Origin: a virus
Lineage: Duplodnaviria; Caudoviricetes
Strand: one strand, 5' to 3'
Virus record (IMG/VR): IMGVR_UViG_3300020469_005303
Coordinates: 1-60,559 of that record
DNA length: 60,559 bases
The notes beneath the pieces are model-generated. The model saw only the letters and a program-made list of their open reading frames with translations, was not told the origin of the DNA and ran no database searches. The translations under genes and the position numbers were made by a program. Shown piece by piece: positions 54,821-59,896 of the stretch (its first letter is position 1; the number at the start of each line of letters is the position of its first letter).

Positions 54821-55746
54821 TGGGGATTTCCGAACAAAAACTATATGCTTTATTACAAAAAGTGTTAGGTGAAGGTAAAATCGTCTCTAAGGACGAAGCA
54901 ATGTTTGTGTGTCCGTTTTCTCATCACCATAAACCAAAGTTGGCAGTAAACCTCACAACACAACGGTGGCAAAGTTGGATTGATACAAACGCAAAAGGAC
55001 GTAGTATTTTTGCGTTATTCAAAAGAATACAAGTTCCAAGCAATTATTTTGCGGAGTTGTCTAAAATCGTTAAACTTCCAAAAAACACTAAACTCGCAGA
55101 CACCGAAGAGCAATTTGTATCATTACCTTATGAATTTAAAAGATTGACTGAAACACATACTGACTTTTCTTATTCTAAAGCAATGAAGTATTTAAAAAAT
55201 CGTGGAATTCAATCATATGATATTGAACGATATGATATAGGATATTGCGATAAAGGAGATTATGCAGGTCGTATTATTGTTCCATCGTTCGATGTAGACA
55301 ATAAATTAAATTACTTTCTTGCAAGAGATTTTACAGGAACTGCGTATTTGAAGTATAAGAATCCACCTGTAAGCAAAGATGTTGTAGTATTTGAAAACCA
55401 AATAGATTTTTCTGAACCATTGATTTTATGCGAAGGGGTATTTGATGCAATAGCAATTCGCAGAAATGCAATTGCTTTGCTTGGAAAAAATATTCCAAGC
55501 AAACTCAAACTACGTTTAATAGAACATGGTGTAAAAGAAGTTAGCATTGTATTAGATAATGATGCGTATAAAAATGCACTATACATATCAGAAACTTTAA
55601 TGAACGATAATATAAAAGTAAAATTAATCAGAATGGGAAATGAAGACGCTGCCGATTTAGGATTTAACAAAATTATTCATAGAATCAAAGAAACCAGTTT
55701 TCTTGATTTTAGTGAATTAATGAATCAAAAGTTATGCATGAATTAA
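54820..55746 (+). CDS. DNA primase (DnaG/TOPRIM type, phage)
   Basis: YLKNRGI, RIIVPS, YKNP, LCEGVFDA, LDNDA, DAAD motifs. Confidence 0.9.
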   Translation: MGISEQKLYALLQKVLGEGKIVSKDEAMFVCPFSHHHKPKLAVNLTTQRWQSWIDTNAKGRSIFALFKRIQVPSNYFAELSKIVKLPKNTKLADTEEQFVSLPYEFKRLTETHTDFSYSKAMKYLKNRGIQSYDIERYDIGYCDKGDYAGRIIVPSFDVDNKLNYFLARDFTGTAYLKYKNPPVSKDVVVFENQIDFSEPLILCEGVFDAIAIRRNAIALLGKNIPSKLKLRLIEHGVKEVSIVLDNDAYKNALYISETLMNDNIKVKLIRMGNEDAADLGFNKIIHRIKETSFLDFSELMNQKLCMN

Positions 55747-56438
55747 AATCAAGTTTAAAAAATGTTGAGAAGGTGTATCATCTTGCTGATATACATATTC
55801 GTAATGTAAAACGACACACCGAGTATTCTTTGGTATTTGAAAATTTTTACAAACAAGTTAAAAATGATAATCTTGATAATGCAATTATTTTTATTGGTGG
55901 GGATATCGCTCATGCTAAAACAGAAATGAGTCCCGAGTTAATAAAACAAATTTCTTCGTTTCTTAGAGAATGCTCAAAGTTACACCCAACTATCGTTATA
56001 GCAGGTAACCACGATTGTAATTTAAATAATCCTGATCGTCTGGATGTATTGTCACCTATCATGGATATGATGGATGATGATAATTTATTTTATTTAAAAG
56101 ATACAGGAATATATAAATTGGGTGATGTTGCTATTGGTGTGTTTGGAATATTTGAAGAACCGTCTGAGTATATCCACGGAGATAAAATAGATGATACCGA
56201 AATAAAAACCAAGATAGCAGTTTACCACGGAGCAGTCAGACGAAGTATGACTGACATAGGATATATAGTCGTGGGTGGAGATGTAAGTTTACCACAATTT
56301 GATGGATATGATATTGTAATGCTAGGAGACATCCATAAGTACCAAGTACTTCAGGAATATAAAACAGAACATCGTTTTGTTCCAGAAAGCAAAGTTGATT
56401 CGTATAAATTAGACGGTTGGGATGTTTGTGATGAATAG
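55734..56438 (+). CDS. Mre11/SbcD (gp47-like) nuclease, N-terminal fragment
   Basis: LADIH, GGDI, AGNHD, YHG, LGDIH motifs; stops before the YSGS motif. Confidence 0.9.
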   Translation: MHELKSSLKNVEKVYHLADIHIRNVKRHTEYSLVFENFYKQVKNDNLDNAIIFIGGDIAHAKTEMSPELIKQISSFLRECSKLHPTIVIAGNHDCNLNNPDRLDVLSPIMDMMDDDNLFYLKDTGIYKLGDVAIGVFGIFEEPSEYIHGDKIDDTEIKTKIAVYHGAVRRSMTDIGYIVVGGDVSLPQFDGYDIVMLGDIHKYQVLQEYKTEHRFVPESKVDSYKLDGWDVCDE

Positions 56439-57306: not shown

Positions 57307-59896
57307 AGAAAATTACGTAAAAATAAAAAGACACAACAAGAATAAACCTGTTGTAGTTTATTCTGGTAGTATGATTCAGCAGAATCATGGAGAAAAACCA
57401 ATAGGTCATGGTTATGTTTTGTGGGACTTACCTTCAAAGAAACACATTCATCACGAAGTTCATAATGATTATGGTTATTACACGATTGAAGTTCGTGATG
57501 GAAAATGTGTAAGTGATCTTGATAAACTTCCCAACAAAGCAAGGTTGAGAGTCAAGGTATACAATACAACTGCAACTGAGACTAAAGAAATAATTGCAGA
57601 CATTCGTCAACGAACAAGTATAAGTGACTTGAATGTTACAAGATGCGATGCAATATCTGAGGCAAAAAAATATGATCGAGATAACAAATTTGATTTTGGT
57701 GATATATCACAGGTGCAAGTTCAAAATGAACTGATTGAAGATTATCTTCGTAGAAACTTCGTTGTAGACGATGATCAAGTTCAAACTGCACTTGATATTA
57801 ATAAAGAAGTAAATGATAAACTGATTGTAAAAGAAGTTCTTAGAAATTGCATTTGGAAACCAAAGAAGTTTGAATTTGGCAATATGTTTAGCTACGGAGA
57901 TGCAAATGTAATCGATTTTACTAATATGAAAAGTGTTATGGGGTTGTTTGCTTCAAATGCAAGTGGTAAAAGTAGTGTAATGAGTGCATTAAGTTTTTGT
58001 TTATTTGACAAATGCGATAGAGCATTTAAAGCAGCCCATGTACTTAATACACAAACAGAATCTTTTTACTGCAAAATAAATTTTGAAATCTCAGGAGTGA
58101 ACTACTATATAGATAGAACTGCAACTACTAAAAAGAATGGTGATGTAACTGTCGTTGTTGACTTTTGGAAGTTAGATGAAGATGGTCAACAAGTATCTTT
58201 AAATGGTGAACAACGAGCGGGAACAAATGCTTCTATTCGTGATCATGTTGGTTCATATGATGATTTTGTTTTAACCACACTTAGTCTACAAAATAATAAT
58301 GCTATTTTTATAGATAAAAGTCAAAGTGAACGAAAAGATTTACTTGCACAATTTATGGGCATTGATACATTTGATCAATTGCACACAACTGCATCTGAAG
58401 ATATCAAAGAAATTAATGCACTATTAAAAAGATTTAATCGTGAAGACTTTGATGAAACTTTAGCTGATGTTCAATCAAAACTTGAAGAAACAAATAAAAA
58501 ATATACTCAACAAGATAGTATAACGAATTTGGCATTGCTTGAGCAAAAGAAATTTAACAAACAACTTGCAGATAAAAACTCTCAATTTAAAAATTGTTCC
58601 TTCGATGAAACTTCGGTCAATATAGATGAACTTGAGTTTAACAAAAAGAATTTAAAAGAAAGATTGATTGTAGCAAAAGAAAATAGAGAAGAAGAATCAC
58701 ACAGAAAACAAAAATTAACAACAGTCAGAAAAGAAAAAGTTTCGGACTTAGTCAAGTTGGATGGTGTTGACGAAAAGTATGTTAAAGTTCTAAAAATTCG
58801 TGAGGATATAAATTTGGTTGATAAAGACTTAGCAGTTTTGCGTACATCTGTGAATGCTAAACTAGATAAACTAAAACACTACGATAGTCACGAATATGAT
58901 CCCAAATGTAAATTTTGCGTGAACAATTCAAAAAATCTAATAGAAAGTGCTGAACAAACTAAAGAAGAATTAGATAAAGATAAAGCAGCGGCGGATAAAC
59001 TTGTAACTCAGAAAAACGAGTTATCTAAAATATTAGATGAGTATAAAAATGTTGAATCCGAATATGAACTGCACGGTAACTTAAAAAACGAAACAACACA
59101 ACTTACATATGAAATAAACGAAGCAGACTCGAAAGTACTTGCGTTATCAAGCATGATAGAATCATTAGAAAAAGATATCGTTATCAACAATAAAACTATT
59201 GAAGAGTATTATGAGTGCAAAGACATCATTGAGTTTAATAAAAAACTGCAAATTGAAGTTAATGCTATTGAAAATAAACTACTTGGTATAAATGAATCTG
59301 CAAATACCGAAACTGAAAAACTACAAACTTTATTTGGTGAAGTAAAAATTGTTGAAAAAGAATATGAAGATGTAATTGCGTCAATAGAAGAAGCAAAAGG
59401 ATATGAACGAAAAAAACGAGGATACGAGTTGTATCTTGATGCGGTTAAACGTGATGGTATTTCATATGAACTTATTTCCAAAACGATACCAAGTATTGAA
59501 AGTGAAGTTAATAATATTCTTTCTCAGATTGTTGACTTCGGAATGCAATTAGAAATGGACGGAAAGCATATCTATTCAAAGATTACATATGAAGACAGAC
59601 ATTGGCCATTAGAAATGTGCAGTGGAATGGAACGTTTCATTAGCAGTATCGCAATGCGAGTAGCACTTATTAATGTAAGCAGTCTTCCTCGGTCTAATTT
59701 CCTCGTTATTGACGAAGGATGGGGTTCATTAGATGGAGACAACATAAGTAGTGTATTTAATCTGTTTACCTATTTAAAAGGGCAGTTTGAGTTCATAATG
59801 GTTATAAGTCATTTGGATGTAATGCGTGATATGGTGGACGAGATTATAGAAATTCAAAAAGAAGGTTCTTTTAGTAAGATAAAATACGGAGCATAA
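57296..59896 (+). CDS. SbcD C-terminal fragment fused to Rad50/SbcC (gp46-like) ATPase
   Basis: N-terminal YSGSMIQQNHGE..HGYVLWD (SbcD); NASGKSS Walker A, CKFC zinc hook, CSGMERF signature, VIDEGWG Walker B, ISH. Confidence 0.92.
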   Translation: MEDKENYVKIKRHNKNKPVVVYSGSMIQQNHGEKPIGHGYVLWDLPSKKHIHHEVHNDYGYYTIEVRDGKCVSDLDKLPNKARLRVKVYNTTATETKEIIADIRQRTSISDLNVTRCDAISEAKKYDRDNKFDFGDISQVQVQNELIEDYLRRNFVVDDDQVQTALDINKEVNDKLIVKEVLRNCIWKPKKFEFGNMFSYGDANVIDFTNMKSVMGLFASNASGKSSVMSALSFCLFDKCDRAFKAAHVLNTQTESFYCKINFEISGVNYYIDRTATTKKNGDVTVVVDFWKLDEDGQQVSLNGEQRAGTNASIRDHVGSYDDFVLTTLSLQNNNAIFIDKSQSERKDLLAQFMGIDTFDQLHTTASEDIKEINALLKRFNREDFDETLADVQSKLEETNKKYTQQDSITNLALLEQKKFNKQLADKNSQFKNCSFDETSVNIDELEFNKKNLKERLIVAKENREEESHRKQKLTTVRKEKVSDLVKLDGVDEKYVKVLKIREDINLVDKDLAVLRTSVNAKLDKLKHYDSHEYDPKCKFCVNNSKNLIESAEQTKEELDKDKAAADKLVTQKNELSKILDEYKNVESEYELHGNLKNETTQLTYEINEADSKVLALSSMIESLEKDIVINNKTIEEYYECKDIIEFNKKLQIEVNAIENKLLGINESANTETEKLQTLFGEVKIVEKEYEDVIASIEEAKGYERKKRGYELYLDAVKRDGISYELISKTIPSIESEVNNILSQIVDFGMQLEMDGKHIYSKITYEDRHWPLEMCSGMERFISSIAMRVALINVSSLPRSNFLVIDEGWGSLDGDNISSVFNLFTYLKGQFEFIMVISHLDVMRDMVDEIIEIQKEGSFSKIKYGA

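Follow-up and report, generated by a model that had tools for sequence, protein, structure and literature searches.

A phage Mre11-Rad50 gene split inside its nuclease domain, with conserved end tags at the seam and a glycosyltransferase-like gene between the fragments

The virus record IMGVR_UViG_3300020469_005303 of IMG/VR (Duplodnaviria; Caudoviricetes) contains a Mre11-Rad50 gene that is interrupted inside the nuclease domain. The record was analyzed over its whole length of 60,559 nucleotides, referred to here as the window, and represents a fragment of a marine, myovirus-like phage with a baseplate wedge protein at 26244..28214. Three co-directional open reading frames (ORFs) on the plus strand encode the N-terminal part of Mre11, a passenger gene, and the rest of Mre11 together with Rad50 (Table 1). 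The 3′ end of ORF1 reads GDIHKYQVL, the phosphoesterase motif V, followed by QEYKTEHRFVPESKVDSYKLDGWDVCDE and the stop codon TAG. ORF2 probably starts at ATG 56431 with the residues MNRFLIKC, as do its homologues, and overlaps the stop of ORF1 in ATGAATAG. ATG 57296, used as the start of ORF3 by 58/58 close homologue clusters, lies in an overlap of 11 nucleotides with the stop of ORF2.

Table 1. Features of the split Mre11-Rad50 locus and of the adjoining upstream gene
Feature	Position	Strand	Basis or remark
ORF1, Mre11/SbcD N-fragment, 234 aa	55734..56438	+	Metallophos/SbcD-like match; motifs I-V, then tail
Tail, 25 residues K210-E234, KTEHRFVPESKVDSYKLDGWDVCDE	56361..56435	+	Absent from most fused relatives
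ORF2, intact passenger gene, predicted GT-B fold, GT9-like	56431..57306 (longest ORF from 56422)	+	Model and Foldseek
ORF3, head, Mre11 remainder, and Rad50	57296..59896 (ATG); TTG alternative 57287	+	
Head, first 13 residues of ORF3, MEDKENYVKIKRH	57296..57334	+	Absent from most fused relatives
Mre11 remainder on ORF3 (core strand VVVYSGSMIQQNHGE, other nuclease-domain elements, capping-domain region)	57335..57838	+	
Rad50/SbcC ATPase part of ORF3, through stop codon	57839..59896	+	PHROG_77, motifs
DNA primase gene directly upstream of ORF1	54820..55746	+	PHROG_47 E 2.8e-41, Toprim domains

ORF1 matches the Pfam family Metallophos (PF00149) with an E value of 1.1e-7 and 33 bits (cutoff of 21.5) over profile positions 2-191 of 191 and the SbcD-like family PHROG_100 with 9.3e-14. 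The metal-binding motifs of the phosphoesterases (D.H, GD..H, GNH[DE], H, and G.xH), which we take to be Mre11 motifs I to V, are all intact, and the residues D19/H21, G56-D57..H60, G91-N92-H93-D94, H165, and G198-D199-I200-H201 are invariant in the 18 N-fragments of alignment A5. The full nuclease and capping fold exists only across ORF1 and ORF3 jointly. ORF3 residues 14-185 align to the missing part, behind motif V of fused proteins of 1033-1105 aa bearing Metallophos. From about residue 182, ORF3 is Rad50-like and matches the SbcC-like family PHROG_77 at 1.4e-42 (residues 185-867 of the TTG version), with the Walker A motif NASGKSS, a zinc hook C538-x-x-C541, the C-terminal signature, and Walker B. 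Residues G224-K225-S226, C538/C541, and D806-E807 are invariant in alignment A1, and the Pfam matches to SMC_N (29.9 bits; cutoff of 40) and SbcC_Walker_B (16.9 bits; cutoff of 27) both remain under the cutoff. ORFs and family matches agree with the original prediction, made from the DNA sequence alone, in which ORF1 carries the motifs through GDIHKYQVL plus a tail and ORF3 a head, the nuclease remainder, and Rad50. Cutting a catalytic fold could in principle abolish its activity, leaving fragments that decay or a protein of which only Rad50 is used. Nothing specific points to such a loss of Mre11, and it is hardly credible given the intact metal-binding motifs, the fixed length of the N-fragments (234 aa in 18/18 extracted), and the low ratio of nonsynonymous to synonymous differences (pN/pS). 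Pooled by the Nei-Gojobori method over 31 distinct of 49 loci, this ratio is 0.19 for the ORF1 body (150 codons) and 0.13 for the ORF3 body, with pS above 0.6.

Judging from the alignments, the fused gene is the norm in most relatives, and the split in the window is derived. Microcystis phage Mel-JY01 possesses a single Mre11-Rad50 coding sequence of 1066 aa with the junction GDIHKMQYMDTERRLAYPGS, and a 735-kb uncultured phage possesses a fused ORF of 1202 aa. A search with ORF3 residues 1-200 yielded 251 matches; among the 120 matches listed, 58 clusters are ORF3-like C-fragments with 70-91% identity and mostly 866-872 aa, followed by fused proteins of 1033-1105 aa with Metallophos at 49% identity or less. 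The 80 viral loci fetched with alignment A1 comprise 64 fused alleles, 12 split alleles, all of the window's clade, and 4 without a call, 3 of which were later read as fused. Over the fetched sets, which share contigs, the split layout occurs in 12/80, 37/76, and 7/80 viral loci, and both fragments are present in 49 loci, 31 of them distinct. The best 150 of 3207 representatives form an unbiased set, with 90 alleles having a short loop after motif V, 41 a middle-length loop, and 7 a long loop in a fused protein, besides 7 split and 5 unclassed alleles. A larger set of 192 N-parts, partly fished with the Gly-Trp pattern described below, divides into 103 with a short loop, 53 with a middle-length loop, 10 with an uncut insert, and 26 split alleles. 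In the common fused form, the G of GDIH and the Y of Y.GS are 16 positions apart, and the loop of the fused proteins measures 16, 20-32, or 47-57 positions. The original prediction was right for the family in expecting these two motifs close together in one fold, and the split inside the nuclease fold is borne out by the fused relatives, the alignments, and its recurrence. The survey of relatives that it called for reveals fused and split alleles, conserved tags, and differing passengers.

Misassembly, named in the original prediction as a possible refutation, is ruled out by the recurrence of the layout in other loci and by contigs from an independent sequencing run, which span both junctions with 0 differences. 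One apparent read joint from 55816 to 57722, found in a single X4 contig with 24 letters on the short side and 85% likeness, carries no weight. Among the fused relatives, P0267, P0301, P0326, P0349, P0350, and P0360 have 1303-1467 aa, about 250-400 residues above the usual size, together with a short junction loop.

Measured against fused forms like GDIHKYQLLQRYNSNNDKPVVVYPGS (P0116), ORF1 of the window ends in 25 additional residues and ORF3 opens with 13. These are the two halves of a mini-domain of ∼40 residues with the order strand, helix, G-W strand, seam, and basic strand. The tail is the strand-helix-GW-strand half and the head is the basic-strand half. Tail and head are contiguous in the fused protein P0117 (GDIHKTQTFYIEKIISIEQAETFSKTKESKDWEVVDDDEMVDAVKIKKLTPIFRYSGS), and further uncut mini-domains are found in P0224, P0230, P0273, P0289, P0292, P0311, P0328, L260/L314, L274, and L312. 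The elements had been regarded solely as end tags, a description too narrow in that some fused proteins carry the same sequence as an uninterrupted insert in the loop. The head pattern M(E/D)..(Y)(V/I)K(V/I).R is present in 58/58 close clusters. Y224, G228, and W229 of the tail are invariant in 18 split N-fragments, and the tail pattern is common to split N-fragments of lineages with only 37-49% identity. In the partly fished set, a Y...G(W/Y) tail is found in 26/26 split alleles classified versus 10/166 fused ones; in these 10 the tail/head sequence is present uncut, and it is absent in the other 156/166. The unbiased top 150 show the tail in 7/7 split alleles, plus one partial fragment, and include no tagless split. 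Both tags evolve under purifying selection: over the 31 distinct loci, pN/pS is 0.32 in the tail and 0.27 in the head (9 codons), with a pS of 0.55-0.79 for tags and bodies. The mean net charge is −5.2 for the tails (n = 26) and +4 for the heads (n = 13). A pattern scan of the 105 window ORFs of at least 60 aa revealed no further tail-like or head-like ends.

The hallmarks of splicing are lacking at the locus, as the original prediction had noted. Rfam gives 0 matches on both strands of 55000..60559 at E values up to 1, and there is no room for intron cores because ORF2 overlaps both neighboring frames. On these two results, the reading as an intron containing an ORF is rejected. Inteins possess a Hint domain that opens with Cys/Ser and closes with His-Asn, the next residue being Cys/Ser/Thr. 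Neither ORF1 nor ORF3 matches the Pfam intein domain, and the first residue of the tail is K, Q, E, or H, with no conserved Cys/Ser. His-Asn occurs only in part of the window's clade, where the next residue is K, P, G, S, A, T, or Q, and is missing in L002, L257, and P0117. With 38 residues in all, far under the size of a Hint domain, and with such residues at its ends, the reading as an intein is rejected. It is thus very improbable that a degenerate split intein, an intron with ORF2, or a translational bypass joins the halves into one chain. Related phages apparently do use inteins in the same gene cluster, in Rad50 of L289 and L307, and the head of the window ends in ...KRHN. The residue after the head is, however, K or N and not Cys/Ser/Thr, the same sequence stands in-frame and unspliced in fused proteins, and ORF2 is conserved, selected, and equipped with a possible start of its own. 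A degenerate intein was also raised by the authors of the study on the split NrdA of Aeh1 as a possible origin of its tails (PMC3045599).

The Rad50 gene of a second clade is cut at the P-loop (…GGKC…) in L289 (8009..10416) and L307 (reverse strand). A piece of 191-193 aa is followed by an endonuclease-like ORF of 338-340 aa and then by the C piece. An insert of ∼143 residues stands uncut in Rad50 of L248 (1510..4311, minus strand) and is absent in L239. Pfam Intein_splicing matches the Rad50 C piece at 1.1e-6 and the contiguous form of L248 at 9e-5, both under the curated cutoff. In L289 and L307, Rad50 probably harbors a split intein whose N part is short and would, as such, be a true "fractured gene" that shares an operon with the Mre11 split, which lacks an intein. 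Within Mre11 itself, the N-fragments of L347 (6001..7638, identical to P0312; 545 aa) and P0220 (551 aa) show an in-frame insert of ∼310 residues after motif II/III. These inserts match Intein_splicing weakly (E value of 0.0014; residues 108-392), and a gene for a TnsA-like endonuclease (7.3e-6) is located just upstream. The P0312 locus ends 166 bases past the N-fragment.

The AlphaFold2 model of residues 1-426 of the fused L274 protein, based on a 31-row alignment, has a mean predicted local distance difference test (pLDDT) score of 87.1 and matches Mre11/SbcD structures, with 3tho_B at the top (1.5e-12) and Mre11 of P. furiosus also among them. Past motif V, the model contains a strand at 204-211, a helix at 212-220, and a two-residue strand after G-W. 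A further strand at 234-241 continues into the core strand 243-246. The loop block 221-230 between them has the lowest local confidence (pLDDT of 76), and the split alleles are cut exactly in this loop. Complex prediction of ORF1 with ORF3 residues 1-190 leads to an ipSAE of 0.88, compared to 0.00 for the best of 3 controls, a score that stands for likeness and not for binding because solved structures abound for the fold of which the partners are halves. The ipSAE mark is reached by 58/80 solved complexes and 2/110 mismatched pairs, at least 87% of the contacts agree between runs, and the partner pLDDT is at least 73. The predicted interface takes in tail residues 207-234 and head residues 5-17, with ORF3 residues 5-27 lying within it. 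The original prediction described the tags as a small split domain that re-joins the halves by strand complementation. The domain itself stood, as one confident unit in the L274 model with both tags in the predicted interface of the complex; docking by strand complementation stays conjectural.

Other lineages harbor different passengers at the seam. LR756508 and nine viral loci encode there a protein of 294-306 aa with CxxC zinc ribbons in its N-terminal part and a PD-(D/E)XK nuclease domain in its C-terminal part. Two kinds occur, a TnsA-like N-terminal domain (Pfam; 5.8e-6) and DUF559 (1.7e-6), and both have matches among PHROG families that bear the name "homing endonuclease" or "HNH endonuclease." By their sequences, these passengers are putative homing endonucleases, which contradicts the original prediction of a system independent of such enzymes. 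No homing endonuclease gene separates the fragments of the window; there, ORF2 occupies the whole gap. Since nuclease genes are found at the same seam elsewhere, the glycosyltransferase most likely moved later into a slot of endonuclease genes. The seam of L348 holds a reverse-strand ORF of 111 aa (phrog_30542; 4e-36) with hairpins on both sides, and Rfam yields only chance-level miRNA and leader matches in this gap, none of them relevant to splicing. Splits without a passenger are found in L172, L248, and L270. In L270, TAA, one codon, and ATG follow one another in the same frame, and in L172 and L248 the two frames overlap. These alleles could be intermediates after endonuclease loss, sequencing frameshifts, or read-through sites. 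The catalogue of passengers leaves out the split lineages P0237, P0245, P0255, P0306, and P0313. In the clade of L239, L255/L262, L257/L289/L297, L280, L307, and L317, Mre11 is found in at least three pieces. The tailed N-fragment is followed by the endonuclease gene, an ORF of 74-82 aa (M.KIKIKK..GS.IQQNFGE...), small ORFs, and Rad50.

The passenger of the window was originally described as an intact GT9-like gene overlapping both neighbors. Its integrity and its overlaps are confirmed. Its family name rests on the predicted fold and on one distant homologue cluster named heptosyltransferase by its source, and a Pfam match to GT9 is lacking (the only match is DUF354, at 0.055). The AlphaFold2 model of ORF2 (pLDDT of 90.5; predicted template modeling [TM] score of 0.89) shows a GT-B fold of two Rossmann domains. 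Foldseek relates it to 3tov (GT9; 2.5e-8; TM score of 0.57) and 1psw (WaaF; 1.2e-7; TM score of 0.60), followed by TibC and WaaC, at a sequence identity of only 10-12%. PHROG gives no match at E values up to 0.01, and none of the 96 ORF2 homologue clusters has a precomputed Pfam domain. ORF2 is under purifying selection, with a pN/pS of 0.23-0.37 in 27 of the 31 distinct loci; the other four were missed by the ORF2 pattern match. Homologues with 48-80% identity are located at the Mre11 seam in 37/37 loci holding them. The 39 distant homologues with 27-37% identity are free-standing within glycan clusters, amid GT2, FkbM-methyltransferase, and sugar-epimerase genes. Coupling of cargo translation to that of the host gene, a further part of the original prediction, is suggested only by the overlaps of the frames. 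A second glycosyltransferase gene is located at 8735..9964 on the minus strand of the window (PHROG_2170; 1.6e-22), and the phage therefore has more glycan genes than the Mre11-internal one.

The distribution of the mini-domain among relatives is patchy. On the FastTree tree of the N-part, the split state requires at least 12 changes and the mini-domain 19, and on the IQ-TREE tree of 67 rows the mini-domain requires 18. The approximately unbiased (AU) test rejects a single clade of all mini-domain rows with a difference in log likelihood of 502.5 (p of 6e-53). The tree used for this test contains 38 hand-picked rows without the mini-domain and leaves out the near-duplicates L006, L015, L244, L251, L255, L286, and L296. 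Well-supported sisters are of unlike state, as in split P0237 and short-loop P0257 or split P0255 and uncut P0292; L274 is uncut within a short-loop clade and L260 is uncut within a split clade. The mini-domains are plainly homologous to one another by sequence, and the short loop is the state in solved Mre11 structures and most relatives. Therefore, one origin of the mini-domain followed by lateral spread is the simplest reading, with repeated precise loss as the alternative. Co-conversion beside a homing endonuclease would yield such a spread. From the patchy distribution and the rejection of a single clade, it follows that the mini-domain probably spreads with the endonuclease.

These findings are best explained, with a probability of about 0.7, by a split gene whose product is reassembled from two chains, without splicing and with the assistance of the tags, in an endonuclease slot. 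A fused Mre11-Rad50 gene of 1033-1105 aa would have been cut in a surface loop after phosphoesterase motif V, the cut falling inside the ∼40-residue mini-domain that most relatives lack. The N-fragment would have retained the acidic strand-helix-GW-strand as its tail, and the C-fragment would open with the basic strand as its head. Both chains would be translated separately and then reassemble noncovalently into one nuclease fold, with tail and head rebuilding the mini-domain at the seam by neither RNA nor protein splicing. The slot would have been opened or kept open by free-standing homing endonuclease genes, which are still present in other lineages, and the mini-domain may have been carried with these genes by co-conversion. 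In the clade to which the window belongs, the slot would have been taken by a glycosyltransferase gene acquired from the glycan cluster of a phage. What the sequences themselves show is the layout, its conservation, the selection on the tags, the uncut form, how diverse the passengers are, and that the mini-domain conflicts with the backbone tree. Noncovalent reassembly, a requirement for the tags, homing, and the order of these events are inferred. Binding of the fragments and the requirement for the tags are predicted, the latter with indirect support from purifying selection, charge complementarity, and the modeled interface.

Splice-free reassembly by tails, as put forward in the original prediction, is in principle already published for the NrdA protein of Aeh1. 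Crona et al. (2011, PMC3045599) describe an nrdA gene split by mobE, in which NrdA-a and NrdA-b acquired their tails with the mobE insertion. Deletion of the tails lowered activity ∼2000-fold. The two systems share a phage enzyme gene cut by an inserted gene (the Aeh1 enzyme being essential), a C-terminal and an N-terminal tail without a match in uninterrupted homologues, opposite charges of the tails, the lack of RNA or protein splicing, and a passenger overlapping the downstream fragment. In contrast to Aeh1, the host gene of the window is a Mre11-Rad50 fusion, the polarity of the charges is reversed, with an acidic tail and a basic head, and the passenger is a glycosyltransferase instead of an endonuclease. 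The tags represent a mini-domain conserved over many lineages that also exists in uncut and passenger-less forms, whereas database searches with the Aeh1 tails gave no significant match (PMC3045599). The system of the window is known from sequence and models alone. The Aeh1 authors consider that the mechanism may be general, pointing to T4 gp39/gp60, and hard to detect because the tails would differ from case to case (PMC3045599). In T4, the topoisomerase genes 39 and 60 are split by mobA, and tail-like extensions were suggested to help assembly (as summarized in PMC3045599; see PMC2988022). This case is alike in that a mobile endonuclease gene interrupts a phage enzyme, and unlike in the enzyme concerned and in sharing no tag sequence.

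The "fractured genes" of Dassa et al. (2009, PMC2677866) contain split inteins with a free-standing endonuclease gene between the halves. As in the window, the inserted gene lies between the two halves and the DNA is environmental and phage-like, and related phages seem to hold such an arrangement in Rad50 of the same cluster. Fractured genes differ from the present case because they splice, whereas the Mre11 seam has neither a Hint domain nor a catalytic Cys/Ser, and its product would stay as two chains. T4 gp47/gp46, E. coli SbcD/SbcC, and archaeal Mre11/Rad50 share the same nuclease and ATPase folds. In these ordinary two-gene systems, the boundary lies between Mre11 and Rad50; here it lies inside the nuclease fold, with the C-terminal part of Mre11 fused to Rad50. 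A phage Mre11-Rad50, whether split or fused, is not described in the literature searched. The present case belongs in kind with Aeh1 NrdA and is a novel, widespread form whose cargo has been swapped. Beside Aeh1 NrdA, the one worked example in the literature searched, it offers a second host enzyme for tail-neutralized insertion of mobile endonucleases, with a recognizable conserved tag domain in many phage lineages, in which cut, uncut, and cargo-swapped forms coexist. The coexisting forms and the conserved tags therefore make it possible to test the portability of the tags, their movement with the endonuclease, and the conversion of a selfish slot into a landing pad for useful genes. Should tail and head prove sufficient for reassembly, the pair of 25 and 13 residues would be a compact split-protein tool.

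Several points weigh against tag-assisted reassembly in an endonuclease slot. The tightest predicted contacts, those with the least error, lie between core strands (residues 13-16 of ORF1 with 40-45 of ORF3; 195-197 with 19-22) and not in the tags. The complex score may reflect the memory of the model for solved Mre11 structures, and such a prediction should come out positive for the halves of any known fold. The Aeh1 tails are not needed for binding between the fragments but for higher-order assembly (PMC3045599), and the docking role proposed here is an assumption because of this dispensability. RNA run X7, an oligo-dT library, yields four short contigs only, so that the evidence against splicing or ligation is indirect. 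The window has neither an endonuclease nor a remnant of one, since ORF2 occupies the whole gap. The trees are calculated from ∼200 columns, the larger one with FastTree, and the Met found at the seam in 4/11 fused-long lineages is a weak hint at re-fusion. The mini-domain could also predate the split and be merely a tolerant loop on which genes land.

An explanation built on some of these points takes tail and head as a passive variable loop that tolerates a cut, with the core interface driving reassembly and the tags adding nothing specific. The position of the least-error contacts, the varying length of the loop after motif V in fused proteins (see above), and the faster evolution of the tags compared to the bodies (pN/pS of ∼0.3 versus 0.13-0.19) agree with this explanation, as does the Aeh1 heterodimer, which formed without need of tails (PMC3045599). 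It is nevertheless unlikely. Both halves are kept in all 26 splits, with invariant Y, G, and W across lineages of 37-49% identity. Tail and head bear opposite charges in one lineage after another, the insert is present in merely 10/166 fused alleles, and tagless splits are missing among the 150 best representatives.

A tentative extension of tag-assisted reassembly, somewhat less probable than not, regards tail, passenger, and head as one mobile cassette, a nonsplicing counterpart of the intein. Here, the endonuclease would be flanked by the halves of a self-associating domain, and a converted Mre11 would be cut yet healed noncovalently. The life cycle of such a cassette might comprise endonuclease-bearing splits, passenger-less splits (L172, L248, and L270), re-fused scars, and re-used slots. 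Fused alleles keeping the mini-domain, some with the seam Met, would be the scars, and the glycosyltransferase of the window and the reverse-strand ORF of L348 would be re-used slots.

The surroundings of the locus show a conserved context. The order of a primase gene followed by Mre11 is also found in Mel-JY01 and LR756508, and a RuvC-like gene is located upstream as well. The DNA likeness of the window to named phages is restricted to 390 bases of Mel-JY01 with 67% identity. Between this RuvC-like gene and a giant ORF lies a glycine-rich, low-complexity ORF of 188 aa (53679..54245) with no family match. Two giant ORFs are encoded at 30055..41139 (3694 aa) and 44226..53624 (3132 aa); the latter consists of about 8 tandem modules of ∼200 residues each (…SWKNFRENVSFSYP…YEFIYRGS…TLNELK…), and both are presumably tail-fibre or surface proteins. 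Downstream of Rad50, an ORF at 59940..60557 that runs off the end of the window matches Zeta_toxin (4.4e-11) and AAA_33 (7.3e-9) of Pfam as well as PHROG_12810 and appears P-loop kinase-like.

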